A stretch of DNA of 64,000 nucleotides from Thermoanaerobaculia bacterium (lineage in GTDB: Bacteria > Acidobacteriota > Thermoanaerobaculia > UBA2201 > DAOSWS01). Shown here one piece after another: positions 18,546-55,822 of the stretch. The translations under genes and the position numbers were made by a program. The number at the start of each line of letters is the position of its first letter. The stretch's first letter is position 1. The notes beneath the pieces are model-generated. The model made no database searches and had not been told where the DNA came from. It was given only the letters and a program-made list of their open reading frames with translations. The stretch spans positions 28,304 through 92,303 of the forward strand of contig DAOSWS010000011.1 in the NCBI GenBank assembly GCA_035593605.1, given 5' to 3'.

Positions 18546-19020
18546 CGGGTTCCTCCCCTTTCATTCTTCGTTTCAGAACTTCTTCCCGAAGTTTCAGAAT
18601 CGCGTAGTACAGACCCTCCGGGTTGGGCGGACATCCCGGCACATAGACATCGACGGGAACGATCTCATCGATTCCCTGCATGACGTGGTAGGCGCGATAA
18701 AATCCGCCCGTGGAGGCGCATACTCCCATGGAGATGACCCACTTGGGCTCGGCCATCTGCTCATAGACTCTCTTCAGGGTCGGCGCAAGCTTGTCAACAA
18801 TCGTTCCGGCGACAATCATGAGGTCCGCCTGCCTTGGAGAAAATCTCACAACCTCGGCTCCATGCCGCGCAAGATCGTAGTGAGAGGAGACGATGGACAT
18901 AAATTCGATCGCACAACAGGCCGTTCCGAAGGGCAGGGGCCACATCGAATTTCCCTGGGCCCACCCTTGTGCCCAATCGTACATCCTCTTGAGCGTGGAT
19001 GTAAGAAAAAACTGTTCCAT
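18532..19020 (-). CDS. nuoB: NADH-quinone oxidoreductase subunit B (N2 cluster)
   Basis: Motifs GTACCAIEFM, GVCASTGG and PGCPP. Confidence 0.9.
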   Translation of the reverse strand: MEQFFLTSTLKRMYDWAQGWAQGNSMWPLPFGTACCAIEFMSIVSSHYDLARHGAEVVRFSPRQADLMIVAGTIVDKLAPTLKRVYEQMAEPKWVISMGVCASTGGFYRAYHVMQGIDEIVPVDVYVPGCPPNPEGLYYAILKLREEVLKRRMKGEEPGVDF

Positions 19021-25611: not shown

Positions 25612-25669
25612 ATCGGGGTTGTCAGGAATTCCCTACATTGGTATGATTCCCTTTTGGATGGAGGCGTCC

Positions 25670-36690: not shown

Positions 36691-36786
36691 GAAACTATTA
36701 TGGGAAAAAAGAACTCTGCGTCAAGTCCGGGAACCTGTCCGGGATTGTGGTTTACTTTTCAGAAGGGAGTGTGTCTAATTAGATTG

Positions 36787-37371
36787 ATGCTCTATGCCTT
36801 TCATATCCCCGATCCTCCTGAATCCCAATCAACTGTTTTCCGCTCTCCGGAACCTGAAAGCAAGAGCTGGAACAAAATCGATGCGGGAGCATGGGTTGAA
36901 GAAACCTACACCATGGTGTACTCCGCTCTGATCCGTCTCTGTGGGGGAGACCGGGAAACGGCAGAAGATTTGACGCAGGAGACCTACCGTAAAGCCTGGC
37001 AGGGGCTTTCCTCATATGCAGGAAAGGCAAAACTTTCCACATGGCTTTATCAGATCGCTTACCACACCTTCTTAAATCACATCCGTAAACCTGCACGCCT
37101 GATTTCCGTGAAGGATTATTCTGCAATTCCAGCAAACGAGGAGCATGAACCACAGGGGCTATTGGAGAAAGAGGATCTCCAGGAGCGTTTGAGAATGGCC
37201 GTCATGGGGTTACCCGACGATCTTCGATTTTCTCTGACAGCCCATTTCTGGGCTGAGATTCCGGTTCGGGAGATAGCACGGATGGAAGGATTGAGTTCCA
37301 TGGCCATTCGAAAACGGCTGAAACGTGCGCTGAAGCTCCTTGAAGCCTTCCTCGGAGAAGCGGAATCATGA
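36787..37371 (+). CDS. ECF-type RNA polymerase sigma-70 factor
   Basis: Region 2 (LIRLCGGDRETAEDLTQETYRKAW) and region 4 HTH (EIARMEGLSSMAIRKRLKRAL). Its stop overlaps the next gene as ATGA. Confidence 0.8.
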   Translation: MLYAFHIPDPPESQSTVFRSPEPESKSWNKIDAGAWVEETYTMVYSALIRLCGGDRETAEDLTQETYRKAWQGLSSYAGKAKLSTWLYQIAYHTFLNHIRKPARLISVKDYSAIPANEEHEPQGLLEKEDLQERLRMAVMGLPDDLRFSLTAHFWAEIPVREIARMEGLSSMAIRKRLKRALKLLEAFLGEAES

Positions 37372-39056
37372 AACGGATCACGCGAAAAACCCTGCAGGAA
37401 CATCTCAGGAAAGGGGATTTCCCTCCCCCTTCCAGGGACCTCTTCTCTCGAATATTCCTTAATATTCCGGATGAAGTGCTTGGCGTGTCTCGCCCCTCAA
37501 AGGATGGAAGCCCCACTCCAACCCCTCTGAGGGCAGCTGCAGCCGTAGTGATCCTGTGTGCTCTGGGAATCCTTGCGGGTTTCGTTCTGGGTCGAATTCA
37601 ACCGATTCGATCCTCGCTGCAGCGAGCCTTCAATTCATCCAACTCCCCGGACCGGCCCGTGATGAACGTAAGCCCCGATTCCCTGAATGAATCATCAGCT
37701 TCACAGGTTCCCCTTCACTCCGCACCAGATCCTGTCCGGAACGCCTCTTTCTTTTCGACGCCGGCTCGCTTTGTCTCCTCCAGGGATTTTCCTGTGGCCG
37801 AGGTTAACCTCACCGTGGATGCGGCACCCTTCAGGTTGTCCCGATATCTTCTGGAACGGGGATACCGTCCTCCCGGAGATCTTGTCGATCCGGCTGCATT
37901 CATCAATCACTTCGTTCAGCCGGTATGGAAAGGAGACAGCCCGGTATCCCTCGACGTAACCGGAGCTGCTTCTCCCTTTCATTCAGATCCCGAGCACAGG
38001 CTGATCCTGGTTCGCATCTCCAGCCGGGGAAAGACGGTTTCCAGCAGTGAACCCGATCGTTGTACTCTCATTCTCAACCTGGACGAAGCCGAGCAGCGAA
38101 ATATCTCCGAAGCCGTCGCAGGAGCCGTTCCTGAATTCATCGCTACGATGGGACCCGGCACAAGTTTTGAATTGATTGCATCCCGCCAGATCATTGAATT
38201 CAAGGCGTTGGATCCCGGAGATCCTAGGACCGGTACGGCTCCATTTCCCCGGGTCGGGACCCTGGATGAAGAAATTTCTCCAATCCCTGAGTCCGGGAAG
38301 GGCCCTCATCGAATCTTTATCGTGACGCAGAAAGTGAATCGGAAACTCCCTGCCTCGGGCTCGGAAAATCCGGACCCCACAACACAGATTGATCTCTCCA
38401 GGATTACCCGCGACATTCCCAGAATCGAAGAAGGTCCCGACGCTCAACTTTTTATCACTCAGGAAGCGGCCCGGCGGGTTCTTCGAAAAATCTCCGAAAT
38501 GGAAGAACCGGTCGCCCGGGATGCCCGGGTCGAAATTCACTTTGAGCCATCAGCTGTTGAATCCTATCGATCACTCTCGAGCGTCAGGGGAAAGGAAACG
38601 GCCGCTCGAAGTTCCATCCTTCCAGGAACAACTCTTCCGGGCAACTTTACTTCGGCTGCGATGTACGAACTAAGAATCCGTCCTGATCGGTCGGACCACA
38701 AACCCCTCGCCACCGTAACATTGACCTACCGTCCCTCCGACCATCCACGGACGAAGATCGAAATCCGAAGAGAGATCTACTTTGACGATCTTTCCACTTC
38801 CTGGGAAAAGGCACCTCTGGAATTTCAACTCCCATCCCTGGCCGCAGAATACAGTATGATCCTTCGGGAAACGTCTAAGGATCCGAAGGATCAGATTGAA
38901 AACCTCTATCAAAAGATAATGGCGCTGTCGAGGGATCAGAGCCGTGACCCTCGCTGGAAAGAACTTCTTTCTCTTGTGGATTCAACCCGGACCGCATACA
39001 GAACCGCCGTTGTGGTCGGTAACGAGTCAATCATTTACCCCCCAAAAGGAGAATAA
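37368..39056 (+). CDS. Putative membrane-anchored anti-sigma factor with large (~480-aa) extracytoplasmic domain
   Basis: It is translationally coupled to the ECF sigma gene. A short cytoplasmic N-terminus is followed by a single TM (AAAAVVILCALGILAGFVLG) and then a long periplasmic region of unknown fold. Confidence 0.55.
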   Translation: MKRITRKTLQEHLRKGDFPPPSRDLFSRIFLNIPDEVLGVSRPSKDGSPTPTPLRAAAAVVILCALGILAGFVLGRIQPIRSSLQRAFNSSNSPDRPVMNVSPDSLNESSASQVPLHSAPDPVRNASFFSTPARFVSSRDFPVAEVNLTVDAAPFRLSRYLLERGYRPPGDLVDPAAFINHFVQPVWKGDSPVSLDVTGAASPFHSDPEHRLILVRISSRGKTVSSSEPDRCTLILNLDEAEQRNISEAVAGAVPEFIATMGPGTSFELIASRQIIEFKALDPGDPRTGTAPFPRVGTLDEEISPIPESGKGPHRIFIVTQKVNRKLPASGSENPDPTTQIDLSRITRDIPRIEEGPDAQLFITQEAARRVLRKISEMEEPVARDARVEIHFEPSAVESYRSLSSVRGKETAARSSILPGTTLPGNFTSAAMYELRIRPDRSDHKPLATVTLTYRPSDHPRTKIEIRREIYFDDLSTSWEKAPLEFQLPSLAAEYSMILRETSKDPKDQIENLYQKIMALSRDQSRDPRWKELLSLVDSTRTAYRTAVVVGNESIIYPPKGE

Positions 39057-39058
39057 CA

Positions 39059-40099
39059 ATGATCCATTGGAAAGCTCTATTCATCATGCCCTTTGTTCTT
39101 GCCGCAACCCTGCTCGCCGCACCGGTTCCTTTCCCCGGTGAAGAACCCCTAATCTGGAGCCATGCCTCTCAGGAAACGGCCTATCTTGGAGTCGTCCTCC
39201 GGGAAGTGACCGCAGATGACCTTCGGAATTCATCCTTGAAAGAAGAGGCTGGAGCTGTCGTAATCCGTGTGGAGGAAGGGAGCCCCGCCGCCAAAGCAGA
39301 TTTCAAGGAAGGTGACGTCATCGTTCAATGGAACAGGACGCCGGTGGAGAGTGCCCTGCAGCTTAAACGGTTCGTCCGGGAAACTCCTCCGGGCCGAAAA
39401 GTCACACTGAACGTGGTCCGGGACGGAAAGGAACTATCCCTTCGGCCCGCGCTGGGAACAAGGCCCCCGGCCCCCGATGTGCCGGATCTGTTCCGCATCC
39501 ACGAGGGAGACAGGGATCATGACGATATCATGAAGTGGATGAACGCAGAGGGAAAGGAGTTCTCCTTCCCCGGGAAAAAAATGGTGTTTCTGACGACGGG
39601 AAAACCCAGGCTGGGCGTCGAGCTTCAAAACCTCTCCGGTCAGCTGGCAGAATATTTCGGAGTAACGGATGGGAAAGGAGTCCTGATCGCCGCCGTCCTG
39701 GATGACTCTTCCGCAAAAAAAGCAGGGCTTCGAGCCGGCGACATCATCGTGGCGATTGACGGCAAAGTGGTTGAGAATTCGAGCGACCTTCAATCCCTCA
39801 TTATGGATAAGGACGAAGGGAGCATTACGATTAAGATCATCCGCGATCGAAAGAAACAGGAGGTAAAGGCCGAGCTGGGTCCGGCTGAAAGAACAGAGCA
39901 TTGTGATAAAAAAATGATAAAGGAGATGGTGTTTTCCCCGGGAGATGACGGCGAGGAAAAGTTCATCCAGGTTCACGTTACGGGTGAACCCGATTCTCCT
40001 GAAGTGGAAATGAAAAACATCAGAGTCATCGTCGATGATCGTAACGATGAGAACGTGAAGGTGATTCACCGCATCGAATCAGACGAACCGGCCATCTGA
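39059..40099 (+). CDS. Periplasmic tandem-PDZ protein lacking a protease domain
   Basis: Signal peptide and two PDZ-like segments (GAVVIRVEEGSPAAKADFKEGDVIVQWN; GVLIAAVLDDSSAKKAGLRAGDIIVAIDG). It is too short to carry a DegP trypsin domain. Confidence 0.7.
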   Translation: MIHWKALFIMPFVLAATLLAAPVPFPGEEPLIWSHASQETAYLGVVLREVTADDLRNSSLKEEAGAVVIRVEEGSPAAKADFKEGDVIVQWNRTPVESALQLKRFVRETPPGRKVTLNVVRDGKELSLRPALGTRPPAPDVPDLFRIHEGDRDHDDIMKWMNAEGKEFSFPGKKMVFLTTGKPRLGVELQNLSGQLAEYFGVTDGKGVLIAAVLDDSSAKKAGLRAGDIIVAIDGKVVENSSDLQSLIMDKDEGSITIKIIRDRKKQEVKAELGPAERTEHCDKKMIKEMVFSPGDDGEEKFIQVHVTGEPDSPEVEMKNIRVIVDDRNDENVKVIHRIESDEPAI

Positions 40100-40213: not shown

Positions 40214-40684
40214 TCATGGTGGAACAGGCAATGTCATATACCGAAAACCATTTGGAAAAACCTCAAGATCCACGGATCCGAAACGGTTATAAAAGGAGGG
40301 GATATCAGTCCCGAGGTAGAGTTCCTTTATCTCCAGCCTCGAGGCATAGCGGAGCAATCTTTTCACAAGATCCGTTCCAGTTCCACGCCCACGGTAATCG
40401 GGAAGAACCAGGAGAGCGGCAAGCCAGGGAGTCCAGTCCGGCCTCTGCTCGGCATCATTTTCTACGAGGTTCACGGTTCCAATGGGCGTGCAGCCTTCCA
40501 TGGCCAGAAGAGAGAGGGGTACCCGGTCGGGGGAGCAGGCCTGTCGGAGCCGAAGCTCCATTGTGGCCTCCGTGTGACCGGGTCGTTGAGACCACCATTC
40601 CCTGTGAATCCATCCAGCAACGGCCTTGACATGTTGAGGCTGCTCGAAGAGATGGCAGATTGTAATCGACCCCGAGTTCACCAT
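40214..40684 (-). CDS. GNAT family N-acetyltransferase
   Basis: Motif A: LLVLPDYRGRGTGTDLVKRLLRYA. Confidence 0.75.
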   Translation of the reverse strand: MVNSGSITICHLFEQPQHVKAVAGWIHREWWSQRPGHTEATMELRLRQACSPDRVPLSLLAMEGCTPIGTVNLVENDAEQRPDWTPWLAALLVLPDYRGRGTGTDLVKRLLRYASRLEIKELYLGTDIPSFYNRFGSVDLEVFPNGFRYMTLPVPP

Positions 40685-40788: not shown

Positions 40789-43731
40789 ATGCACATCCTT
40801 CGAGCGGCAGGGCTTATTCTCCTGCTGTTTCCGGCAATACCTCTTCAGGCTCTCGATCCGATGAAATCGATCGACCAGTATGACCACACCATGTGGAATA
40901 CCGAAGATGGTCTGCCTCAGAATTCAGTCACTGCAATTCTCCAGACCCGCCTCGGGTATATCTGGTTCGGAACTCAGGAAGGATTGGTTCGCTTTGATGG
41001 TGTTCGATTTGATATTTTCGACAAATCCAATGTAAAGGCTTTCGCCTCCAACAGCGTAACCTGCCTGGCGGAAGACCGGGAAGGTTCGTTATGGATTGGA
41101 ACGACCGATGGCCTGCTCAGGTATCGTTCGGATTCATTTCAGCACTTTGGTGAAAAAGAGGGCCTTCCAGGAAGAACGGTAAACTGCCTGTGGTCTGAAC
41201 CGGATGGATCCATCCTTGCCGCCACAGATTCCGGCAATCTGTTTCAATTTGGATCGAATCGATTCACACCCGTAATTCAGGGCACTCTCGAACCGAATGA
41301 TTCAATCCGTACGATTTTCAGAGATCGTTCCGGCATCTTGCACATCGGTACGGTTCGCCAGGGAGCGGGACAGATCAATTCCAGAGGAGAACTGATCCAG
41401 GATTCAGAGAAGGAGCTCCGAAACGTCCCGATCCGCTGTATTGCGGAGGCTCAGAACGGAGCCTTATGGTTCGGAACATCCGGACAGGGGCTTGTTTCGA
41501 TTCATAAGGGTAGGATCCGAAAGATTGGAACACGGGACGGGCTATGCGATGAGATCGTATCAACTCTACTTGTCGATCGAGACGAAAATCTCTGGATCGG
41601 CACCTTTGGGGGCCTGAACCGGATTCGACAGGATGGATCAATGGACTCTTTTCAGGTTATGGAGGGAAGTGCCACGAATGTAATCCTGAGCCTCGAGGAA
41701 GATCTCGAGGGGAATCTCTGGGTGGGAACTTCCGCCGGGGGTCTGCATCGGTTTAAAAATGGGACGTTCACCACGCTGACGCAGGCTTCCGGGATGAAAA
41801 ATGACGATGTATTTTCCATCTGCCAGGATGGGAAAGGAGCTATGTGGTTCGGGACTTACGGCGGGGGAGCTTATCGACTGGACCAGAATATCCTGACTTC
41901 TGTCTCAACAATAAATGGACTATCCAGCGATGTTGTCCTTTCCGTTCAGGCTTCCCGTAATGGAAGCATATGGATCGGCACGGCGGAAGGTCTGAACCGG
42001 CTGGACAATCACGGTATTCGTACCTACACGGTACGGGATGGACTGAAAAGCAATACGATCACAGCCATTTATGAAGACCATGAGGGAGAGCTCTGGATTG
42101 GGACAGACGGTGGAGGGTTGAGTCATCTGACCGGAGACCGTTTCACAACCTGGTCCCTGGAGGATGGACTGAGCCATCCGATTGTCACAACGGTTCTTAA
42201 GGACCGGGAAGGAACAGTATGGGTTGGAACGGATGGGGGGGGTCTCAATTATCTTCAGGACGGGAAAATTCATCATGACAATCGGGATGGACTTGCAGAG
42301 GGAATGATCATGGTTCTGTACCAGGATGGGGAAGGTGATATCTGGATCGGGACCTTTGGAGATGGACTCTATCGTATTTCTGGAAGCGAGGTTCAACACT
42401 GGACGATGAGGGAAGGCCTTTTCAATGACGCAATCTTTGAAATTCTTGAAGATGATTCATCCCATCTATGGATGAGTACAAATAAGGGTGTCTTTTCCGT
42501 CACAAAATCCCAGCTGGACGACGTGGCCCGTGGGAGGTTGGACCGTGTCGGGTGTAAAACCTACGGAACCCGGGATGGGATGAAGAGTAACGAATGTAAC
42601 GGCGGTGTTCAGCCCGCCGGCTGCAGATCAAAAGATGGGAGGCTCTGGTTTCCGACGCTGAAGGGAGCTGTGGTCGTGGACCCTGAGCATACGGTCACCA
42701 ATACCATTCCTCCCCCTGTCGTCATCCAGAAGGTCCAATCGGGAGACAGGGTTTACTCAGGGCGGACACCAATCGTACTGGAGCCCGGGTATGACAAATG
42801 TGAATTCCACTATACCGGCCTGTCTTTTTTCGACCCTGACCGCGTATTGTTTCGATACATGCTCTCAGGCTATGACCATTCCTGGGTCGAAGCCGGGAAA
42901 AGGAGGACGGCATTTTATACGGGGCTGAAGCCGGGGCGCTATACCTTTCGGGTCATTGCATGCAACAGTGACGGAATATGGAATGAAGAGGGCGCCACGG
43001 TATCCCTGACCCTGCTGCCCTTTTTCACACAAACCGTCTGGTTTTACCTTCTTCTTTCTCTTATTATCGGGTTGGGAGTCCTGGGGCTGTATCGTATTCG
43101 CGTCAACCACCTGCGCCGCAGGGAGAGAGAACTCGAACGCCTGGTGGATGACCGGACCCGAGATCTCCTGAGCGTGACCCGTGAACTGGAATCAGCTAAC
43201 AAAGAACTCCAGCGCCTCTCCTCTCAGGATGGTCTCACGGGAATTCCCAACCGGCGTCTCTTCGAGGAGACCCTTGATGGGGAGTGGCGGCGCTCTCTTC
43301 GAACGGAAACTCCCCTGTCCATCATCATGATTGATATCGATCATTTCAAGGCTTATAACGACAGTATGGGACATATCAAGGGAGATGAATGCCTCAAAAT
43401 CGTCGCGGATACGTTATCGGGATGTTTACGACGTCCCGGGGACCTTCTGGCACGATTCGGCGGAGAAGAGTTTGTCGCGGTGCTCTTCAACAGCGACGAA
43501 CAGGGTGCGCTTTACACTGCGGAAACCATGAGGAATGCCGTACGAAAACAGGCACTTCCTCACCCATCCTCTCCAATCGATACCGTCGTGACCATCAGTC
43601 TTGGTACTGCAACCTTTCGTCCTTCGCCCTCCACTTCCGCAACAGCTCTGCTGTCTGCTGCGGATGATGCCCTGTACGAGGCCAAGCGAGCCGGGAGGAA
43701 TACCGTTTGCCAGAGTGTCCTGAATGGCTGA
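40789..43731 (+). CDS. Periplasmic beta-propeller (Reg_prop repeats) plus Y_Y_Y sensor, TM, and GGDEF diguanylate cyclase
   Basis: Signal peptide, then many ~45-aa repeats (LWIGT..GL.R...). One TM (LLLSLIIGLGVLGLY), then a coiled-coil and a GGDEF domain (RFGGEEF). The ATG at 40789 is preceded by a TATAAT-like box. The ORF-track start at 40756 is a TTG. Confidence 0.85.
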   Translation: MHILRAAGLILLLFPAIPLQALDPMKSIDQYDHTMWNTEDGLPQNSVTAILQTRLGYIWFGTQEGLVRFDGVRFDIFDKSNVKAFASNSVTCLAEDREGSLWIGTTDGLLRYRSDSFQHFGEKEGLPGRTVNCLWSEPDGSILAATDSGNLFQFGSNRFTPVIQGTLEPNDSIRTIFRDRSGILHIGTVRQGAGQINSRGELIQDSEKELRNVPIRCIAEAQNGALWFGTSGQGLVSIHKGRIRKIGTRDGLCDEIVSTLLVDRDENLWIGTFGGLNRIRQDGSMDSFQVMEGSATNVILSLEEDLEGNLWVGTSAGGLHRFKNGTFTTLTQASGMKNDDVFSICQDGKGAMWFGTYGGGAYRLDQNILTSVSTINGLSSDVVLSVQASRNGSIWIGTAEGLNRLDNHGIRTYTVRDGLKSNTITAIYEDHEGELWIGTDGGGLSHLTGDRFTTWSLEDGLSHPIVTTVLKDREGTVWVGTDGGGLNYLQDGKIHHDNRDGLAEGMIMVLYQDGEGDIWIGTFGDGLYRISGSEVQHWTMREGLFNDAIFEILEDDSSHLWMSTNKGVFSVTKSQLDDVARGRLDRVGCKTYGTRDGMKSNECNGGVQPAGCRSKDGRLWFPTLKGAVVVDPEHTVTNTIPPPVVIQKVQSGDRVYSGRTPIVLEPGYDKCEFHYTGLSFFDPDRVLFRYMLSGYDHSWVEAGKRRTAFYTGLKPGRYTFRVIACNSDGIWNEEGATVSLTLLPFFTQTVWFYLLLSLIIGLGVLGLYRIRVNHLRRRERELERLVDDRTRDLLSVTRELESANKELQRLSSQDGLTGIPNRRLFEETLDGEWRRSLRTETPLSIIMIDIDHFKAYNDSMGHIKGDECLKIVADTLSGCLRRPGDLLARFGGEEFVAVLFNSDEQGALYTAETMRNAVRKQALPHPSSPIDTVVTISLGTATFRPSPSTSATALLSAADDALYEAKRAGRNTVCQSVLNG

Positions 43732-43781
43732 AATGAAAGACTTTTCTTTACCATGCATGGGATTTGGTGTATAGTGAGTCA

Positions 43782-44963
43782 ATGATTTCTTTGATTCTGT
43801 GGGCCCTTCTTTTTTTCCCAACACTGGATGCCCAGCAGGTGCAAAGCCGAATAACGGAAATCAGGGGCCTGCCCTTTAAGCACTCCGTAACCGTAAAATC
43901 CATGGATCGGGAGGCTCTCGATCCATTCATTCAGCGGGCCCTGAAGGACACATACGGAGATCATGTCGAGGGACTGGAACGCTGGCTGAAGGCCCTCAGG
44001 CTCATTCCAGAGAACACGGACATGGTTGCCGATCTTCTCAATCTATACAAATCGCAGGTCGCGGCATTCTACGATCCCAAAGATCAGGTCTATTACGTAA
44101 TTCGGGGCGTCGGAGACGAAGGCATGGTAGCCGACATGGTTGCCCTCCACGAATTCACTCATGCACTCCAGGATCAGTATATGAACCTGGACTCCCGGAT
44201 GACCCGTCTCATGGGGAACCATGATGCCCAGATGGCCCTTCAATCGGTCCTGGAAGGAGAAGCCACCATACTCATGATGGCTGACCAGTTTGGAAAGCTT
44301 GGAGGGGGCGATCTTCGAGCTTTCTCTGATTCTCTGGACCTCTTCGCCCCGACCATGACGGATATCATGGGAGATTTCCCACCCTATCTGATTCACGAAA
44401 TGGTCTTTCCCTATCTCCAGGGAGCGCGGTTTGTCATCGAAAAAACCGATGGAGGAAAGAATTTCAAGGCCCTGGATCAGTGGTATGCCTCACCTCCCTG
44501 TTCGACAGAAGCCATTCTTCATCCGAACCAGAAGACATCTTTCCCGGCTGATTTCAGCAGGATGATCAACAAAACTGCTCCCGGGAGTTGGGATCTCACA
44601 TTCGGTGACACATTGGGAGAATCCACCTGGAGTTATATCTTTCATACAACCGGCGATAAAGAAAGGGCGGAACGGGCAGCCGCAGGATGGGATGGAGATC
44701 GTGTTGGACTCTTCACGCGAGGGAAAAATGAAGTCACGGTCTGGCTTTCCCGATGGGATTCCAGATCGGACAGGGAAGAAGCGGAATCCGCATTGAAGGA
44801 TTACCTGAAAATGTCAGAATTACCCTTTGAAATCCTTTCCGGAGAAAACGTTTTCGTAGCAGTGACCGGTGAACCAGGGGATCGAAGGGGATTCATAAAA
44901 AAAATCACCAGACGACTCAAGCAGATGGAGGAGGTACATGGGTATGACTGCGCAAGCGAATGA
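43782..44963 (+). CDS. Secreted putative zinc metallopeptidase (HExxH...E gluzincin-like), family unknown
   Basis: Signal peptide MISLILWALLFFPTLDA. Motif ALHEFTHALQ, with a downstream LEGEA motif. It overlaps the next gene by 26 nt. Confidence 0.5.
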   Translation: MISLILWALLFFPTLDAQQVQSRITEIRGLPFKHSVTVKSMDREALDPFIQRALKDTYGDHVEGLERWLKALRLIPENTDMVADLLNLYKSQVAAFYDPKDQVYYVIRGVGDEGMVADMVALHEFTHALQDQYMNLDSRMTRLMGNHDAQMALQSVLEGEATILMMADQFGKLGGGDLRAFSDSLDLFAPTMTDIMGDFPPYLIHEMVFPYLQGARFVIEKTDGGKNFKALDQWYASPPCSTEAILHPNQKTSFPADFSRMINKTAPGSWDLTFGDTLGESTWSYIFHTTGDKERAERAAAGWDGDRVGLFTRGKNEVTVWLSRWDSRSDREEAESALKDYLKMSELPFEILSGENVFVAVTGEPGDRRGFIKKITRRLKQMEEVHGYDCASE

Positions 44964-47226
44964 AGTCCAATCACTTCTTCAATTCAAAGAAAGTCTCACA
45001 GAAATCATTAACCAGATCCATGGAGCCCAGAATATAAAAGAAATCATCGTGGATCTGAAGACCCGGATTCTGGACCTCCTGGGCGCCGAGCGGATTACCA
45101 TATACGCCATCGACACAAAGAACCAGCAGTTGTACAGCCTTTACAAAGAAGGTGAAGAACTGAAAGAGATTCGGGTACCCCGTAACTTTGCATCGATTGT
45201 GGGATTCTGTGCTCTTTCAAGACAGACCGTTCGTCTTAAAAATGCCTATGATCCTGAAGAATTAAAGGCCCTTCACCCCAAGCTGGACTTTGACTCTTCC
45301 TGGGATAAAAAATCGGGGTTTACAACCGCCCAGGTCCTGGCGGCACCGATTCTTTACGATAAGTACATCATGGGAGTTCTTCAGCTCCTGAATAAAAAGG
45401 GAGGCGGAGAATTTACCAATGCGGATCAGGCGGCGGCACAGGAGATTGCGAAAACCCTGGGAATCGCCTTTTACAACCAGAGACGGATAACCCGGGCTCA
45501 GCAGCCCAACAAGTATGGATACCTGATCGACAAGGGGCTGATTTCGGAGAAGAACCTTGAAGATGCCGTCAGCTATGCTCGAATGAATAACCAGGAAATC
45601 AGCCATGTCCTGGTGGAAAAGTACCGGATCGCAAAAGAGGAAGTCCTGAAAAGCCTGGGGCAATTTTTCAATTCCGGCCACTTTGTTTTCGACGGAACCC
45701 AGATGATGCCTGAAGAATTTCGCCAGAGACTCAACCCCGAATATCTGAAAAAAGTCCTTGTCGCGCCGCTGTCCAAAAAAGGCGGAACGGTTCAGGTCGC
45801 CATGGAGGACCCCACAGATCTGGCCAAAATTGACATTGTCCGAATGATGCAGCTGGCCCCCCGGCATGAATGTCTTGTTGCCATACCCAGGGATATCCAG
45901 GATTACATCAACACCTCCTATGGGATCGAGGAAACCGAGGTAAAATCCGATCTGGCTGAAATTCTGGGTGAACTGGAAGCCGAAACCGAAGAGGTGGTGG
46001 ATGAGGATGCTCTGGGTGTCGACGAAGCCGACAACGCCATCGTTCGACTGGCCAACCAGATCATCAAGGATGCGTATCAGCAGGGCGCCTCGGACATCCA
46101 CGTGGAGCCCTATGGGAAGAAGATGCCCACAAGGATTCGTTTTCGAATTGACGGCGTCTGCCATGTGTACCAGGAAATTCCAGCCACACATCGCAATGCC
46201 GTGATATCAAGGCTTAAGATCATGTCCAATCTTGATATTTCTGAACGTCGAAAACCTCAGGACGGGAAAATCAGATTCCGCATGAAAACGGGTACGATCG
46301 AGCTTCGTGTGGCCACCATTCCCACTACCGGCAGTGAAGAAGACATCGTCATGAGAATCCTGGCGGCATCCAAACCGATCCCTCTGGAGAAAATGGGATT
46401 TTCCGAACGAAATCTCTCCGCCTTTTACGAAGTTGTTTCAAAACCCTATGGAATCGTTCTATGTGTAGGTCCTACCGGATCGGGAAAGACAACAACCCTG
46501 CACTCGGCCCTGGGATACATTAACACCCCGGAACGAAAAATCTGGACAGCGGAAGACCCCGTGGAAATTACGCAGCCCGGGCTGCGTCAGGTTCAGGTTC
46601 ATCCGAAGATCGGATTTACTTTCGCTGCTGCGATGCGCTCGTTTCTCCGTGCCGACCCGGATGTGATCATGGTCGGTGAAATGCGTGACCAGGAAACGGC
46701 CCACATCGGCGTGGAAGCATCCCTGACCGGTCACCTTGTCCTTTCCACACTTCACACCAACTCCGCACCGGAAACAATTACCCGTCTGCTGGATATGGAT
46801 ATCGATCCATTCAACTTTGCCGATTCTCTTCTGGGCATTCTTGCCCAGCGTCTGATCCGGACCCTCTGCAAGAGCTGTAAAGAGTCCTACAATCCTTCCA
46901 GGGAAGAATTTGAGTCCATGGCTGCCTCCTTTGGACGAGAGGCTCTGGCAGCCAGACAGATCGAATGGAGCCCCGACATGACACTTTATAAACCGGTCGG
47001 TTGTCCCGAGTGTGCGGGAACGGGATATCGCGGACGAATGGGACTCCACGAGCTTCTTGTGGGAACCGACGAGGTCAAGCGCTTGATCCAGCAAAAATCG
47101 GTCGTGGAAGAAATCCGAAACCAGGCGATCAGTGACGGTATGACCACGCTGATGCAGGACGGGATCATCAAAGTTCTCCAGGGAAGTACGGACATGAAGC
47201 AGGTCCGGGCGGTATGTATCCGGTAG
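44938..47226 (+). CDS. GspE/PilB-family secretion ATPase with N-terminal GAF domain and T2SSE_N (MshE-like) domain
   Basis: GAF-like first ~200 aa. T2SSE_N-like region (ISEKNLEDAVSYARMNNQEISHVLVEKYRI). Walker A GPTGSGKTT, Asp/His boxes, and tetracysteine CKSC...CPEC. Confidence 0.85.
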   Translation: MGMTAQANEVQSLLQFKESLTEIINQIHGAQNIKEIIVDLKTRILDLLGAERITIYAIDTKNQQLYSLYKEGEELKEIRVPRNFASIVGFCALSRQTVRLKNAYDPEELKALHPKLDFDSSWDKKSGFTTAQVLAAPILYDKYIMGVLQLLNKKGGGEFTNADQAAAQEIAKTLGIAFYNQRRITRAQQPNKYGYLIDKGLISEKNLEDAVSYARMNNQEISHVLVEKYRIAKEEVLKSLGQFFNSGHFVFDGTQMMPEEFRQRLNPEYLKKVLVAPLSKKGGTVQVAMEDPTDLAKIDIVRMMQLAPRHECLVAIPRDIQDYINTSYGIEETEVKSDLAEILGELEAETEEVVDEDALGVDEADNAIVRLANQIIKDAYQQGASDIHVEPYGKKMPTRIRFRIDGVCHVYQEIPATHRNAVISRLKIMSNLDISERRKPQDGKIRFRMKTGTIELRVATIPTTGSEEDIVMRILAASKPIPLEKMGFSERNLSAFYEVVSKPYGIVLCVGPTGSGKTTTLHSALGYINTPERKIWTAEDPVEITQPGLRQVQVHPKIGFTFAAAMRSFLRADPDVIMVGEMRDQETAHIGVEASLTGHLVLSTLHTNSAPETITRLLDMDIDPFNFADSLLGILAQRLIRTLCKSCKESYNPSREEFESMAASFGREALAARQIEWSPDMTLYKPVGCPECAGTGYRGRMGLHELLVGTDEVKRLIQQKSVVEEIRNQAISDGMTTLMQDGIIKVLQGSTDMKQVRAVCIR

Positions 47227-47990
47227 CCTGTATCCAGTTTCAACCCGCCTGGAAGGATCTTCAGGTAAACCTTGAAGCAATTTTGCAGTGGACGGACCGT
47301 GCGGGAGAGGTACGTGCCGTCTTTTTTCCCGAACTTGCCACGACCGGATACCTTTTTCAGAGCCGCGAAGAAGCGCTTCTCCTCTCCCTTACACCGGATG
47401 ATCCGAGGCTGGACCCCCTGCGTCGAACGGCAGAACGATCCGGAAAGATGATCACCTTCGGAACCCCGATCCGGGAAGGAGATCATCTCTATAACAGCGC
47501 CCTGATCCTCCACCCCGACGGGAGCGTGCGTTCCTACCACAAAGTTCACCTCTTTGATCGTGAAAAAAACGTTTTCGATCCGGGCCCGGATGCTCCTGGA
47601 CTAATTGAACTGGACGACCTGAAGGTGGGGGTTCTCATCTGCTTCGATTGGGCTTTTCCGGAGATCTGGCGTTCTCTGGCGATGCAGGGAGCCGATCTGG
47701 TTGTGTGTCCATCCAACCTCGTCCTTCCTGGAAAGGGTCAGAAGGGTGTCATCGGGCACGCTCTTTATAACCGGATCTATGTCGTCCTGCCCAACCGATA
47801 TGGCGTGGAAGACGATCTTCGTTTTACGGGAGGATCCCTGATTGTGGGTCCGGATGGAGAAATTTTATGCGAGGCACCGGGCGTCGGAGATCGAATTCTT
47901 CGGTCCTGGATTGATCCGGCTCTTGCCCGAAACAAGCAGGTGACTTCCCGCAATCATCTCTTTAAGGACCGAAGACCCGGGTTTTATTAA
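47214..47990 (+). CDS. Carbon-nitrogen hydrolase family protein (nitrilase/amidase superfamily)
   Basis: Catalytic triad context FPELATTGY (Glu), an HKVHLF (Lys) region and ICFDWAFPE (Cys). It overlaps the upstream gene by 13 nt. Confidence 0.8.
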   Translation: MYPVACIQFQPAWKDLQVNLEAILQWTDRAGEVRAVFFPELATTGYLFQSREEALLLSLTPDDPRLDPLRRTAERSGKMITFGTPIREGDHLYNSALILHPDGSVRSYHKVHLFDREKNVFDPGPDAPGLIELDDLKVGVLICFDWAFPEIWRSLAMQGADLVVCPSNLVLPGKGQKGVIGHALYNRIYVVLPNRYGVEDDLRFTGGSLIVGPDGEILCEAPGVGDRILRSWIDPALARNKQVTSRNHLFKDRRPGFY

Positions 47991-49084
47991 TGCAGTGTGT
48001 CCAGTGCGGAGCCAACCTGGAACAGCAGGACCTGGTTTCAACACAGACCTTTCCCGGAACGGACGCGGGCCGGTGCCGACATTGCGGAACGATCAATCTC
48101 ATCACACAGGATGGCCCCCGATATGTGCTGATCTGTGATGTCTGCGCAGCTCCCTTTGCTTCTCCAACGGGACTGGGGCCGGGAGAAGAGATTTGTCCGG
48201 ACTGCAGGGTACAAAAGCGAAGGGCCCCGGCCTTCCTGATTCCCCTCCTGGACAAGCTCTCCCGTGCCAGGGAAATCACACTGGGTAACGAAGCGGCCCG
48301 GAATATCCTGAAAAACAAAACCGTAATTCCTCAGGGTCCGACTGTCGTATGGTTAAATCGCGTTGTTTCCCTTCTCGGCAGTGAATCCCCAAGACCTGAC
48401 CTTCCCTATTCCTGCATTCTCGTTCAGGATCCGGAACCCAATGCACTCTCCATTCCGGGCGGTATCATTCTTGTAAATACGGGGCTTTTCGACTTCGTTG
48501 AGCGGGAGGGAGAGATCGTCTTTGTCCTGGCCCATGAGGTGAGCCATATCTGCATGCGCCACGGGCTCCTGAACCTGGAGCACAGGGAAAAGATGGCTCC
48601 CATCCGTTTTCTGGCTAACCTTGCCGTTCTTCTGATAACGGGCGGTGCAGCCTGGTTTCTGATCCCCTTTGTCAATGTTCTCCTGGATGCAGAGAAAATG
48701 GGCTATGGAAGACAGCATGAGACGGAGGCCGACAAGATGGGGATGAGGCTCATGCTGGATGTGGGATATGATCCCACCCACGCGGCAATCTTTTTTGACC
48801 GCCTCGCGGCTCTACAGCCTTCATCTCAATATATGGCGTTTCTGGCCTCCCACCCCTCTCCCCTCGACCGTAGGAACGCGGTGCGTTCCTTTCTGCATGA
48901 ACACCCCGTCGATCCTTCCCTGCTTCGCGGTAATGAAGTCGTCGGAAGAACGAAAAAAATTGCTTCACCGACCACGCAAAGGGGGAGATCCCCCATACCG
49001 GTCCAAAAGCCGTGCGGTTGTTGTTCCTGCTGCGGTTGCTCGGGCTTTCTCCTGGCTCTTCTCAGCCTTCTCTTGAGCTGCTGA
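47990..49084 (+). CDS. M48 family zinc metallopeptidase with N-terminal zinc ribbon and C-terminal poly-Cys hydrophobic tail
   Basis: N-terminal CVQCG...CRHCG...CPDC. HEVSHICMRH (HExxH) with downstream ETEADKMG. The C-terminus is KPCGCCSCCGCSGFLLALLSLLLSC. Its start overlaps the upstream stop as TAATG. Confidence 0.8.
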   Translation: MQCVQCGANLEQQDLVSTQTFPGTDAGRCRHCGTINLITQDGPRYVLICDVCAAPFASPTGLGPGEEICPDCRVQKRRAPAFLIPLLDKLSRAREITLGNEAARNILKNKTVIPQGPTVVWLNRVVSLLGSESPRPDLPYSCILVQDPEPNALSIPGGIILVNTGLFDFVEREGEIVFVLAHEVSHICMRHGLLNLEHREKMAPIRFLANLAVLLITGGAAWFLIPFVNVLLDAEKMGYGRQHETEADKMGMRLMLDVGYDPTHAAIFFDRLAALQPSSQYMAFLASHPSPLDRRNAVRSFLHEHPVDPSLLRGNEVVGRTKKIASPTTQRGRSPIPVQKPCGCCSCCGCSGFLLALLSLLLSC

Positions 49085-49099
49085 TCCTTTCTGTGCAGG

Positions 49100-49879
49100 T
49101 CAACGCGCACAGGTCTGAGCTCTGCCTCCATCGATGGAAATCGTCTCACCCGTGATCCACCCCGCATTTCTGGATGCCAAAAACAGGATCAGCTCCGCGA
49201 CCTCTTCCGGGCTTCCAACCCGGCCCAATGGATGGGTATCTCTGGATCGTTCCAGAAATGCCTTATACGTCGGCTCGTCCATTCCCCCTGCTCGATGGAG
49301 GTTGGTGACTACCACTCCGGGATTGACAGCGTTGACTCGCACTCCATGAGGAGCCAGCTCCAGTGCGGCACACCGGGTCAGCTGGTCGACGGCGGCCTTC
49401 GAAACACAGTAGGCCAGGACTCCGGGAAAGGATCTCAGGCCTGTGACACTTGAAACGTTGACGACGGACCCTGATGATTGTTGCAGGAGTGGAAGGGCTA
49501 ACTGCATAATGTGAAAAACCGATGTGGTATTGATTTCAAACATTTCAGAAAAAACGCCAATGGAAGTCGATTCCAGGGTACCGCTCCCAATAATGCCTGC
49601 GGCATTAACGACACTATCCAGCCGGTGAAATCGGTATTCACATTCCCCGACCAACTGTTGGCGAAAGGAGGCTTCCTTCAGATCCCCCGCGAGGGCGATT
49701 ACCTCGCGTTTCATTGCTCGAATCCTCGCTTCCGTATCCGAAAGGCGCCCCCGATTCCGTCCCGAAATCACGAGGTCAGCTCCTCTATGGGCGAAGGCGA
49801 TGGCTGTCGCCTTCCCAATGCCGGAGGATGCCCCTGTAACCAGGGCCACCATTCCCTGAAAAGAATTATGTTCGTCCAT
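49100..49879 (-). CDS. Short-chain dehydrogenase/reductase (FabG-like)
   Basis: TGASSGIGKA cofactor motif and the catalytic YCVSK. Confidence 0.85.
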   Translation of the reverse strand: MDEHNSFQGMVALVTGASSGIGKATAIAFAHRGADLVISGRNRGRLSDTEARIRAMKREVIALAGDLKEASFRQQLVGECEYRFHRLDSVVNAAGIIGSGTLESTSIGVFSEMFEINTTSVFHIMQLALPLLQQSSGSVVNVSSVTGLRSFPGVLAYCVSKAAVDQLTRCAALELAPHGVRVNAVNPGVVVTNLHRAGGMDEPTYKAFLERSRDTHPLGRVGSPEEVAELILFLASRNAGWITGETISIDGGRAQTCAR

Positions 49880-50026: not shown

Positions 50027-51934
50027 ATGATCTCCCATAAGCTCATGTTGGAAAGTCTTCGTGACTCTGAGCGGAGATTCAGAAACATCGTTAACGAAGC
50101 CCCTATGGGCATGCAGATGTTCAAACTCACGTCATCCGGTGAGCTTATCCTTATGGGCGCCAATCCTGCAGCAGACTGCATTCTCGGAGTCGTTCACGAC
50201 AATCTGATTGGAAAACCGATCCTGGAAGCCTTTCCGGGCCTTTCAGATACATCTCTGCCCGATACCTATCTGAAGATCGCCAGAGAGGGAACCCCGCTCA
50301 AGGTGGAGCATATTGAAGAACAGGATGGGTCCATTGTCAAAGCGTGCGAAATTCATGCCTTCCAAACCTCTCCCGGGATTGTCGTGGCCACAATTCTCAA
50401 TGTTACGGATCGAAAAAGAGCAGAAGCTGAATTGCAGCGAACCCGTGCGGATATTGAAGCAACGGTGGAGAAACGAACCCGGGAACTTGCACGGGCCAAT
50501 CAGCAGTTGAATCTTGAGATCGAAGAACGCCAGAGGGCTGAAACCACACTGCGATTCAAAACCACTCTATTGAAGGCTCAGTCCGAAACCTCGATCGAAG
50601 GGATTCTTGTCGTTGCTCCGGATGGAAGCGTCATTTCCTGCAATTCACAATTTGCAAAATTGTGGAATATTCCTGAGGAAATTCTTTCCACCCGGGATGA
50701 TCAGAAACTCCTGGACCATGTTCAGAGTCAGCTGAAGGACCGGGAGGGATTTCTGGAAAAGGTCCGTGCTCTGTACGGCGACAAAGAACTCTGCAGCCGG
50801 GATGAGATTCCATTCAACGACGGCAGGGTATTTGATCGGTATTCGTCACCTCTCGTAGATGAGGAGGGGCGGTATCATGGACGCGTGTGGTTTTTCCGGG
50901 ACATCACTGAAATGCGGAATGCCGAGCGGGCCCTGACCCAGGCCAAGATCACCCTGGAACAGCTCCTGAGCGTAGCACGTCAGCTGGAAGTTGCTGAATC
51001 CGAAGAGAAGGTTTATGATCTCGTAATCTCTGCAGTACAGAACATCCTGGGATTGAACTACGTTTCGGTCTACTGGATCGAAGTTGATATCCTCCAGCGC
51101 ACAGCCGTATCGTCCGATCTTTCACTTCTCTCGCCTGAAACGATCTTTTTGAAGGACGTGAAAGATCTTCTTCCCTCCGATGAAGAGGATACGACCTATT
51201 TCGAGGATATCCGCAAGCGCCTGGCGGGCCCTGAACCCTGGCCGGAATTTCGATCTATGATATCGGGACTCCTGGGTGAAGATGCGATTCTCTTTGTCCT
51301 GGCCCGGGAAGAGAGGCTCCTTGGAGAACAGGACCGCGGCACGGTAGCCCTTCTCCTGGGTCACGCAGGAGAAGCCCTGAACCGGTTAAGGCTGGAACAG
51401 GAACTGAGAGACCAGGCCGTGCGGGATCCTCTCACCGGTGTCTACAACCGCAGATATTTCTTCCACATCCTTCAAAAGGAAGTCGAACGGGCCATGAGAA
51501 ATCGAAGACCTCTCGCATTTCTTATGGCAGATATCGATCTCTTCAAGGACATTAACGACCGCCACGGTCACCATACAGGAGATGAAATCCTGAAAGCGGT
51601 AGCTGCTGTAATCCTGAAACGGGTCAGAAAGGTGGACACGGTTGTCCGATACGGCGGAGACGAGTTTCTCGTCATTCTTCCAGATACAGGGGATGCCGTG
51701 GAGGTGGTACGACAGAATATTCTGGACGAAATGAAAAACAATTCCCTGCTCTCGGATATTGCCGGATCCCCCGTCACCCTCTCGCTCGGTGGAGCCTATT
51801 GGAATCCACAAAGTCCGGATTCCCCTGAGGAAGCTCTGAAAAAGGCCGATCAGCAGATGTACAGGAATAAAAAAAGGACCCGCGAGAGCGGGTCCCTGCC
51901 TGGCTTGCCAGAAGAAAAGAACGAAATCGATTAA
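50027..51934 (+). CDS. PAS/PAS/GAF-like sensor diguanylate cyclase (GGDEF)
   Basis: Two PAS-like blocks, a GAF-like middle region, and a C-terminal GGDEF domain (RYGGDEF) with the RxxD I-site region. Confidence 0.85.
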   Translation: MISHKLMLESLRDSERRFRNIVNEAPMGMQMFKLTSSGELILMGANPAADCILGVVHDNLIGKPILEAFPGLSDTSLPDTYLKIAREGTPLKVEHIEEQDGSIVKACEIHAFQTSPGIVVATILNVTDRKRAEAELQRTRADIEATVEKRTRELARANQQLNLEIEERQRAETTLRFKTTLLKAQSETSIEGILVVAPDGSVISCNSQFAKLWNIPEEILSTRDDQKLLDHVQSQLKDREGFLEKVRALYGDKELCSRDEIPFNDGRVFDRYSSPLVDEEGRYHGRVWFFRDITEMRNAERALTQAKITLEQLLSVARQLEVAESEEKVYDLVISAVQNILGLNYVSVYWIEVDILQRTAVSSDLSLLSPETIFLKDVKDLLPSDEEDTTYFEDIRKRLAGPEPWPEFRSMISGLLGEDAILFVLAREERLLGEQDRGTVALLLGHAGEALNRLRLEQELRDQAVRDPLTGVYNRRYFFHILQKEVERAMRNRRPLAFLMADIDLFKDINDRHGHHTGDEILKAVAAVILKRVRKVDTVVRYGGDEFLVILPDTGDAVEVVRQNILDEMKNNSLLSDIAGSPVTLSLGGAYWNPQSPDSPEEALKKADQQMYRNKKRTRESGSLPGLPEEKNEID

Positions 51935-54949: not shown

Positions 54950-55822
54950 CTACCAGGATGGATTCCAGGTTGAAATCGCGCCGGGAATGACTTCGATATG
55001 AGCCGGTAACGTTCCATAGGGATCCCCATCAATTTCCAGATGAGCTCCCTCACACGTTACGATGGAAATTCTCTTCCCTTTTCTGACATTCACATCATTC
55101 CGTCCTGGATGACGGGCCCGATAGAGATCGACCGCCAGCTTGAGAATCGCGGGGTAGGGCCGCCAGGGAAGGGTGACCACCTCCAGAATACCATCTGAGA
55201 TATTTGCCTCGGGGGCAATGGGCATTCCTCCACCAAAGAAACGTCCATTCGCAATCGCGACAACCAGGCTTCGCTCATGCGTATACTTCTCCCCGTCGAT
55301 ACGAAGGTTCAATTCGCATGCTTTAAATTTCAGCGAACAGCGAATGGCCGTAACGATATAGAGAAGAGAGGCGGGAAGATGGGGCACCTTACTCTGAATA
55401 CGCTCCACAACCGCACCGGAAAGACCCGTTGATACAACGTTTAATCCATAGCGGGCTCCGAGATCGCTCTCCACACGAAAACAATCACAGGTAAACAATG
55501 GGGATTGTGTTCCAGCCCTCCTGTGAATATGAAGGCTGCGAATGAAATCGGCTCCTCGACCCCCCGCCAGAAACCCGAGCGACAGGGGAAGCTGAAGCCG
55601 GTACACCACATTGACCGTTTCAGAAAAAGTACCATCTCCCCCAAGGATAAGGATACGGGACAAGCCTTTTTCCGCAGCCCGGGTCAGCTCGTCTCTGAGT
55701 TCATCTCGGGATTCTGGAATAACAATCGTCAGCCCGGGAACTTCCCGGCGTGCCCGCTTAACAACCCTTCGCCACGGCCCTCCCCCTTTTGGGTTGACGA
55801 CCAGGAGATCCGCTGTATTCAT
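54950..55822 (-). CDS. Diacylglycerol/lipid kinase catalytic domain protein (YegS/BmrU-like)
   Basis: DAGK_cat motif ILILGGDGTFSETVN. Confidence 0.75.
   Translation of the reverse strand: MNTADLLVVNPKGGGPWRRVVKRARREVPGLTIVIPESRDELRDELTRAAEKGLSRILILGGDGTFSETVNVVYRLQLPLSLGFLAGGRGADFIRSLHIHRRAGTQSPLFTCDCFRVESDLGARYGLNVVSTGLSGAVVERIQSKVPHLPASLLYIVTAIRCSLKFKACELNLRIDGEKYTHERSLVVAIANGRFFGGGMPIAPEANISDGILEVVTLPWRPYPAILKLAVDLYRARHPGRNDVNVRKGKRISIVTCEGAHLEIDGDPYGTLPAHIEVIPGAISTWNPSW

Follow-up and report, generated by a model that had tools for sequence, protein, structure and literature searches.

What does an ATPase of the PilB/GspE type do in an operon whose other genes encode a predicted exported protein with a zinc-peptidase motif, an amidase and a second zinc metallopeptidase, and do the four proteins form one machine? 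The question is raised by a four-gene cluster (genes 1 to 4, the ATPase being gene 2) at positions 43,782 to 49,084 of a 64,000-nucleotide (nt) stretch of contig DAOSWS010000011.1 from a Thermoanaerobaculia bacterium, referred to below as the window. The original prediction, made from the sequence of the window, had proposed that the cluster could be a c-di-GMP/GAF-regulated module for ATP-driven processing or export. Our analysis leads to a different answer: the object of interest is the ATPase, a member of a widespread and apparently uncharacterised family of PilB-like ATPases with an N-terminal GAF domain, and the four-gene arrangement is of local significance only.

Gene 2 matched the Pfam T2SSE family with 425 bits, against a cut-off of 24.9. 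The Walker A sequence GPTGSGKTT, the DPDVIMVGEMRD box and the LHTNSA sequence were all invariant among 16 relatives of the ATPase, and so were the four cysteines C644, C647, C689, and C692 of the tetracysteine zinc site. With the T2SSE domain, the catalytic boxes and the tetracysteine motif all present, gene 2 belongs to the PilB/GspE/MshE superfamily of secretion ATPases. The closest relatives in the PDB were PilB and PilF, and gene 2 very probably works as a hexameric motor like these. Nevertheless, it falls below the NCBIfam equivalog cut-offs of the named members of the superfamily, with 531.8 bits against 675.65 for PilB (TIGR02538) and 501.6 bits against 630.25 for GspE (TIGR02533), and it is below the cut-off for TfpB as well.

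A word-indexed protein search returned thousands of full-length relatives of approximately 760–770 amino acids (aa) with the same three domains and 61–80% identity. When one genome per GTDB species was searched, at least 597 loci of the family were found, and the best 80 of these at least 597 loci showed 48–68% ATPase identity over the whole length. The nearest cultured relative in this search was of Geotalea/Geobacter. The loci belong to at least seven phyla (Acidobacteriota, Myxococcota, Desulfobacterota, Nitrospirota, Nitrospinota, Planctomycetota, and Methylomirabilota). At least 597 species-level genomes from environmental phyla carry a member of the family, among them those of Nitrospira, Nitrospina, Geobacteraceae, Myxococcota, and Acidobacteriota, and an identity of approximately 50–80% across phyla suggests that the function of the ATPase is strongly constrained and probably important. 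A literature search found no paper that describes or characterises an ATPase with the GAF-MshEN-T2SSE architecture. The ATPase of the window is closer to proteins labelled as Myxococcota, Deltaproteobacteria or CSSED10-310 (67–70% identity) than to those of other genomes labelled as Thermoanaerobaculia (57–59%); either the ATPase tree is out of step with the taxonomy or the labels of the metagenome-assembled genomes are unreliable. The Thermoanaerobaculia origin of the window itself agrees with the label of database proteins that are 100% identical to its own.

The four genes lie on one strand and overlap by 26, 13, and 1 nt (the last at position 47990). Our list of open reading frames (ORFs) reproduced the coordinates and overlaps given in the original prediction, and its domain calls proved correct, those for genes 2 to 4 in the Pfam and NCBIfam profile searches. 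The six-frame ORF list also contains an alternative TTG start for gene 1 at position 43764. Three successive overlaps indicate an operon, yet they are ordinary for this genome: counted from the longest-ORF starts, overlaps occur in approximately 13 of the approximately 28 pairs of neighbours on one strand in the window. What lends weight to the overlaps of the cluster is that relatives show them again, with the same lengths of 26 and 13 nt.

The conservation of the cluster was assessed in 85 loci of the ATPase family (48–80% identity, with up to 10 kb of flanking DNA on each side) by BLAST with genes 1, 3, and 4. Homologues of genes 1 and 3, together with what is likely the start of gene 4, were present in just one of these loci (L084; SRR7614767). 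The ATPases of L084 and of the window are 80% identical, and the identities are 48–49% for gene 1 and 54% for gene 3. Downstream of its CN_hydrolase gene an ORF with a GTG start begins with MTSTESPVTCRACGAE, similar to the zinc ribbon with which gene 4 begins, and there the contig ends. On a second contig of 1.8 kb (L166; ERZ4201062), a gene 1 homologue (45%) overlaps the start of an ATPase gene (77% for the N-terminus) by the same 26 nt. None of genes 1, 3, and 4 was found in the other 84 ATPase loci, 83 of which were fully scanned, apart from distant, large CN_hydrolase proteins in two of them. The next closest ATPases, with 69–70% identity, lie in quite different neighbourhoods that lack the cluster, and the contexts of the ATPases from Thermoanaerobaculia-labelled genomes differ as well. 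Neither the ATPase nor the amidase was present in any of 80 metagenomic DUF8575 loci, DUF8575 being the family of gene 1. Taken together, the searches anchored on the ATPase and on gene 1 and the search with gene 4 show that the cluster is conserved, overlaps included, only within a shallow clade, and that DUF8575, CN_hydrolase and M48 proteins are spread independently of the ATPase. The locus is therefore a real operon limited to one clade. The proposed module is not supported as a recognisable unit, since the four genes are found together only in this narrow clade and the combination is missing from 84 of the 85 ATPase loci and from all 80 DUF8575 loci. The original prediction had also named two outcomes that would speak against it. 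One of them, that the four genes are never found together outside this genome, was closely approached: L084 has genes 1 to 3 and the zinc-ribbon start, and L166 has genes 1 and 2.

The other outcome was that the ATPase is a locally rearranged pilB, i.e., the PilB or GspE of the organism parted from its pilus or type II secretion system (T2SS) locus. This explanation can appeal to the likeness of gene 2 to PilB, PilF and GspE in the PDB and NCBIfam searches. The neighbourhoods of the ATPase argue against it. A Pfam scan of the window covered every large ORF, 47 in number with the four genes of the cluster included and an antisense alternative counted among the other 43, and none of the 47 ORFs across the 64 kb carried a T2SSF/PilC, pilin, secretin or prepilin peptidase domain. 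The absence of pilus and T2SS partners, originally noted for 15 kb around the cluster, thus extends to the whole window. In the 85 loci, the neighbouring ORFs were clustered all against all and ten of the largest recurrent clusters were annotated with Pfam. The clustering revealed no universal partner of the ATPase, and none of the ten annotated clusters was a platform protein, a pilin or a secretin. The largest cluster consisted of sigma-54 activators, a generic family, in 21 of the 85 loci, followed by ABC ATPases (16 loci) and Maf (14 loci), while RseP, ProS, and PilZ clusters came from 11 Nitrospira loci. The commonest neighbours are thus either generic or restricted to one lineage. Pfam-annotated gene tables of individual loci gave the same picture. 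A secretin was seen in one locus (L003), 9 kb from the ATPase. Because no platform, pilin or secretin family is found among the annotated recurrent neighbours, the ATPase is a true stand-alone gene and not a displaced pilB. Its relatives, too, lie outside canonical pilus and T2SS loci (0 of 85 are pil or gsp loci) and form a GAF-bearing family of their own, with 48–80% identity across phyla, and gene 2 stays below the PilB, GspE, and TfpB cut-offs. We therefore consider a displaced pilB very improbable.

Some neighbourhoods contain further genes with related domains. In ten loci the ATPase has a tandem paralogue with two GAF domains, for example a 1001-aa protein with two GAF domains, MshEN and T2SSE directly upstream of the single-GAF ATPase (L061:6812-9814 and approximately nine other loci, in Nitrospina and others). 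PilZ genes lie approximately 1.5 kb downstream of the ATPase in the uppS-cdsA-dxr-rseP-proS-ATPase block of Nitrospira (L048:16444-16854 and ten further loci), and a REC-PilZ gene lies 3 kb upstream of the ATPase in a Vicinamibacteria locus (L003:6522-7232).

Gene 2 has two domains ahead of the ATPase core that could serve in its regulation, a GAF domain and an MshEN-like domain. The original prediction had noted that in MshE the latter is a receptor for cyclic di-GMP (c-di-GMP), and had suggested that the module could be regulated by this ligand. The domain is recognised by Pfam (43.3 bits against a cut-off of 23.1) and aligns to MshE (PDB 5HTL) with an E-value of 5e-4. The c-di-GMP receptor form of MshEN consists of two tandem 24-residue motifs, RLGxx(L/V/I)(L/V/I)xxG(L/V/I)(L/V/I)xxxxLxxxLxxQ, or of a relaxed form of these (Wang et al. 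2016, PMC5013675). When gene 2 is aligned to 5HTL, its first RLG is shifted and A stands in place of Q32, and in the second motif RLG is replaced by EIS, G by Y, and Q by F. The relaxed motif was matched by none of 16 members of the family, whereas the control, MshE of Vibrio cholerae, gave two matches. With the NCBIfam model of the c-di-GMP motif (NF053729), gene 2 scored 22.4 against a cut-off of 38. The key residues being substituted and both motif searches negative, the domain is not supported as a c-di-GMP receptor, and a Pfam match to MshEN is by itself insufficient to call one.

The GAF domain, on the other hand, resembles the cyclic-nucleotide-binding type in sequence. Its best match in the PDB was CyaB2 (1ykd, 6.7e-22), followed by PDE10A, PDE6, PDE2A, and PDE5, with values ranging to 1e-5, and in this sequence search almost all of the closest solved relatives were cyclic-nucleotide GAF domains. 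The signature residues N152-K153, F159, and D163 are present in gene 2, and the signature was found in 13 of 16 relatives. When the N-terminal 345 residues were used as a query, 182 representatives of 50%-identity clusters were found at E ≤ 1e-30, some of which have several GAF repeats; forms with two to four repeats were among those retrieved. From the degenerate MshEN motifs and the likeness of the GAF domain to cyclic-nucleotide GAF domains we infer that the regulatory input has probably shifted from MshEN to GAF, and that the ATPase is most likely controlled by a ligand of the GAF domain, the likeliest being cyclic AMP (cAMP) or cyclic GMP (cGMP), and not by c-di-GMP in the manner of MshE.

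The three other proteins of the cluster differ in their predicted location and in their relatives. Gene 1 had no match in our local Pfam search, but PF26686 (DUF8575) is assigned to the identical protein and to its relatives in precomputed annotation. The family model match is accompanied by a conserved HExxH motif and a downstream glutamate, both of which are invariant in the alignment, in agreement with DUF8575 membership. The N-terminus of the translated gene is hydrophobic. The structure of the protein was predicted with a predicted local distance difference test (pLDDT) score of 92, and consists of a gluzincin-like HExxH metallopeptidase fold followed by a C-terminal alpha/beta domain that resembles TM1622, TiME, the sensor domain of PknH, and RseB/MucB. 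A Foldseek search with this model gave no match. With the NCBIfam model of Hvo_1808, gene 1 scored 117 against a cut-off of 200. No paper describing DUF8575 and no characterised member were found in a literature search. Based on the invariant HExxH and glutamate and the hydrophobic N-terminus, gene 1 most likely encodes an exported zinc peptidase or a peptidase-like binder.

Gene 3 matched CN_hydrolase with 131.6 bits and its translation contains the catalytic triad E40, K110, and C143, which places it in the nitrilase superfamily. It remained under every NCBIfam equivalog cut-off, the best being an archaeal nitrilase with 180 against 500, and is by prediction an intact Nit-type amidase. Gene 4 matched Peptidase_M48 with 90.5 bits over residues 121–300, and the translation shows H182-E-V-S-H186 and, downstream, E244-T-E-A-D248, as in members of M48. 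It scored 96 against the cut-off of 570 for BepA, and likewise did not reach the equivalog cut-offs for LoiP and HtpX. The protein begins with two cysteine quartets (C3/C6/C29/C32 and C49/C52/C69/C72) and ends in a tail with seven cysteines within the 11 residues CGCCSCCGCSG (eight with the terminal cysteine), followed by a short hydrophobic stretch. This tail may anchor the protein in a membrane, bind a metal or act as a sorting signal, and the zinc ribbons and the tail together suggest a tail-anchored enzyme that faces the cytoplasm. No similar tail was present among the homologues of gene 4, and the homologue search returned, besides the identical entry of the protein itself (P0198), only BepA-like proteins with approximately 30% identity over 60% of the length and no homologue of the same architecture.

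We regard it as fairly probable that the cluster is a clade-specific co-expression unit around a stand-alone, probably cyclic nucleoside monophosphate (cNMP)-gated PilB-like motor whose partners are encoded elsewhere. According to this explanation the ATPase would be independent of its three neighbours, and genes 1, 3, and 4 would be co-expressed passengers that have stayed with it in part because genes with overlapping reading frames do not easily come apart. The ATPase would act as a hexameric motor that docks via its MshEN-like N1 domain on a platform of the PilC/GspF type, the gene for which would lie elsewhere in the genome. A small ligand at the GAF domain, most likely cAMP or cGMP, would switch the ATPase, in place of c-di-GMP binding as in MshE. 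The product of gene 1 would be a periplasmic zinc peptidase or peptidase-like binder, that of gene 3 a cytoplasmic amidase, and that of gene 4 an M48 peptidase anchored by its tail and facing the cytoplasm. If the four have a task in common, such as envelope or protein quality control under the neighbouring extracytoplasmic function (ECF) sigma factor, it would be local to the clade. On this reading the four-gene cluster is not a general secretion or processing machine. No defence-system model was matched by any of the four proteins in PADLOC, the best result being a 20-bit P-loop match to mad8.

Several observations weigh against this explanation. The last residue of the NKFDE signature of the GAF domain is Q in gene 2, and cNMP binding is predicted from sequence similarity. 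The platform encoded elsewhere is an assumption, and a PilC/GspF partner is putative for every member of the family. Among 5.8 billion proteins, the three closest homologues of gene 1 are all joined to the ATPase by the 26-nt overlap; in that subfamily the linkage between gene 1 and the ATPase is absolute although gene 1 has diverged to 45–49%. In 11 Desulfobacterales loci (e.g., L039:12666-14540), a large M48 membrane protein with TPR repeats is encoded convergently just downstream of the ATPase. In 19 of the 55 DUF8575 loci with enough upstream DNA, a prepilin peptidase gene (Peptidase_A24/PilD) lies directly upstream on the same strand, which is a second, independent link of DUF8575 to type IV filament machinery. 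The PilD-DUF8575 junction is often a 4-nt overlap (among others in L121, L124, L127, L132, L135, L137, and L139), and DUF8575 identity among the PilD-linked loci is 23–99% with a median of 50%. These loci share one syntenic block, M48(-) / SpoU(+) PilD(+) DUF8575(+) / DUF445(-) Lon(-), so the 19 may represent few independent events. We took the adjacency as a lead only and not as evidence for the originally proposed module, as three other DUF8575 contexts contained no pilus genes. The Desulfobacterales M48 genes were likewise not adopted as a sign of an ATPase-M48 partnership, because the M48 architectures differ, the genes are convergent and not operonic, and the comparison was made post hoc.

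The linkages of gene 1, M48 and PilD speak for the original proposal narrowed to this clade, a functional unit in which the GAF-gated motor would drive export or processing and in which the amidase and both peptidases (M48 and the periplasmic DUF8575 protein) would take part. The overlaps, which stayed identical while gene 1 diverged to 45–49% and gene 3 to 54%, speak for it as well. The PilD-DUF8575 adjacency keeps such a four-protein module alive, at a low probability. The cluster and the scanned ORFs of the window lack genes for a membrane platform, a pilin or a channel, and the predicted compartments differ, gene 1 being exported and genes 2 to 4 having no signal peptides. Furthermore, the four-gene combination is missing from nearly all loci of either family, gene 4 is unique to this lineage, and the clade is shallow (77–80% ATPase identity), the cluster being gone already at 69–70%. 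In the light of this a four-protein unit appears rather unlikely. We also see a small chance for a joint reading, in which ATPases with a GAF domain, a degenerate MshEN domain and a PilB-like core would be a distinct functional class, coupled in this clade to envelope and cytoplasmic hydrolases (DUF8575, amidase, zinc-ribbon M48) as an ATP-driven processing unit, and DUF8575 would be a hitherto unrecognised periplasmic accessory of type IV filament machinery, as hinted by how often it follows PilD in other loci. In another explanation, the cluster would be the distal part of an ECF-sigma regulon for envelope stress or proteostasis (in the order sigma factor, anti-sigma-like protein, PDZ protein, DUF8575, ATPase, amidase, M48), in which envelope proteins would be the targets of the proteases and of the PDZ protein, and the ATPase would be co-induced. 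Directly upstream of gene 1 in L084, on the same strand, are a sigma70_r2/r4 gene, a gene for a vWA/YfbK_C protein and a PDZ protein gene, and the window has the same three genes in the same order (49%, 26%, and 39% identity by tblastn, the 562-aa protein being the second). However, a GNAT gene on the opposite strand and a large GGDEF gene lie between this block and gene 1 in the window, the gap between the PDZ gene and gene 1 is 188 nt in L084, the one sigma-70-like match ahead of gene 1 is no better than chance, and the synteny comes from only two genomes. We consider this regulon quite unlikely, and the co-expression unit around an independent motor remains the preferred explanation.

The features of the cluster and of its upstream region are collected in Table 1.

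Table 1. Positions of the four genes, of their domains and motifs, and of the upstream genes in the window.
Feature	Position	Strand	Basis or remark
ECF-type sigma factor, 562-aa protein, and PDZ protein	36700..40099	+	Pfam; syntenic with L084
GNAT gene	40214-40684	-	with the GGDEF gene, separates the sigma-PDZ block from gene 1
Reg_prop/Y_Y_Y/GGDEF diguanylate cyclase, 991 aa	40756..43731	+	Pfam; ends 50 nt upstream of gene 1
Gene 1, predicted exported DUF8575 protein	43782..44963	+	ATG start; 393 aa, the publicly annotated form
HEFTH zinc-binding motif of gene 1 (residues 123-127, 393-aa form)	44148..44162	+	translation; columns invariant
Gene 1/gene 2 overlap	44938..44963	+	26 nt; equal in relatives L084 and L166
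Gene 2, GAF + MshEN-like + PilB/GspE-type ATPase	44938..47226	+	762 aa
GAF domain of the ATPase (residues 43-177), similar in sequence to the cyclic-nucleotide-binding type	45064..45468	+	Pfam, 34.5 bits
MshEN-like N1 domain (residues ~195-333), degenerate c-di-GMP motif	45520..45936	+	Pfam MshEN, 257-333
T2SSE ATPase core (N2 + C-terminal domain, residues 364-756)	46027..47205	+	Pfam T2SSE; catalytic motifs invariant
Gene 2/gene 3 overlap	47214..47226	+	13 nt; equal in relative L084
Gene 3, CN_hydrolase (nitrilase-superfamily) amidase, predicted cytoplasmic	47214..47990	+	258 aa
Gene 4, zinc-ribbon M48 metallopeptidase	47990..49084	+	364 aa
Two CxxC...CxxC zinc-ribbon-like motifs of gene 4 (residues 3-73)	47996..48208	+	translation
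Cys-rich hydrophobic C-terminal tail KPCGCCSCCGCSGFLLALLSLLLSC of gene 4	49007..49081	+	translation

The GGDEF gene upstream of gene 1 may be co-transcribed with the cluster. No terminator-like site was found in the 50-nt gap between them, and the only promoter-like match before gene 1 (43747-43775, sigma-70-like) was not above the expectation from shuffled sequence. Over the region 43400-49400, the counts of promoter and terminator matches equalled the shuffle expectation, which neither supports nor excludes an internal promoter. The GGDEF gene is not found at the corresponding position in L084. The window contains two other GGDEF genes (50027-51934 and 55819-57156), three in all, and one HD_5 (HD-GYP-like) gene at 22012-23169; these nearby GGDEF genes leave our inference on the GAF ligand unchanged. 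Scans for Rfam families (at the gathering score) and for tRNAs gave no match in the window (1-64000), and there is therefore no riboswitch, for c-di-GMP or otherwise, ahead of the cluster. Elsewhere in the window, a 1179-aa ORF (25619-29158) had no Pfam match and a 696-aa ORF (19925-22015) only a weak match to HEAT_2. A fused NuoC-NuoD (30 kDa + 49 kDa) gene lies at 16875-18545 (-); the 580-aa ORF that overlies it on the opposite strand (16941-18683, +) had no family match and is probably spurious.

MshE and PilB are known to be controlled by c-di-GMP. Should the GAF domain bind cAMP or cGMP, a motor of the pilus/secretion type would in this family be switched directly by a cyclic mononucleotide, unlike those two.

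Genes 1, 2, and 4 can be compared with the closest known systems. Gene 4 shares the M48 catalytic domain, the HExxH and the ETEAD motif with peptidases of the BepA and LoiP type, but lacks a signal peptide and TPR repeats, and carries two zinc ribbons at the N-terminus and a hydrophobic poly-Cys tail at the other end. The closest known proteins to gene 1 are DUF8575 (PF26686), the surface proteins of the Hvo_1808 family, and the 'putative hydrolase' of Chloroflexus (3cmn_A); gene 1 differs from these in belonging to a short subfamily (370–393 aa) with three known members, each of which overlaps an ATPase gene. The ATPase shares with PilB and with PilF of Thermus (PDB 3jc8, 5tsg, and 6f8l) the T2SSE core of N2 and C-terminal domains, the MshEN-type N1 domain, the Walker A, Asp box, Walker B and His box, and the tetracysteine zinc site. 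It is unlike them in its additional N-terminal GAF domain and its score below the PilB equivalog cut-off, in never being next to pilC, pilM-Q or pilin genes in the 85 loci, and in the unusually high conservation of its family, which is 48–80% identical in full length across phyla. As in ATPases of the MshE and PA14_29490 type (PDB 5HTL; PMC5013675), an N-domain of the MshEN fold precedes the T2SSE ATPase, but both 24-residue c-di-GMP motifs are degenerate in gene 2, and the relaxed form is absent from all 16 relatives. Finally, cyclic-nucleotide GAF domains, those of Anabaena CyaB2 (1ykd) and of PDE2A, PDE5, PDE6, and PDE10A, are the nearest solved sequences to the GAF domain of gene 2 and share its NK...F...D residues, but the final E of NKFDE is Q in gene 2, and its GAF domain is joined to a secretion-type ATPase and not to a cyclase or phosphodiesterase.

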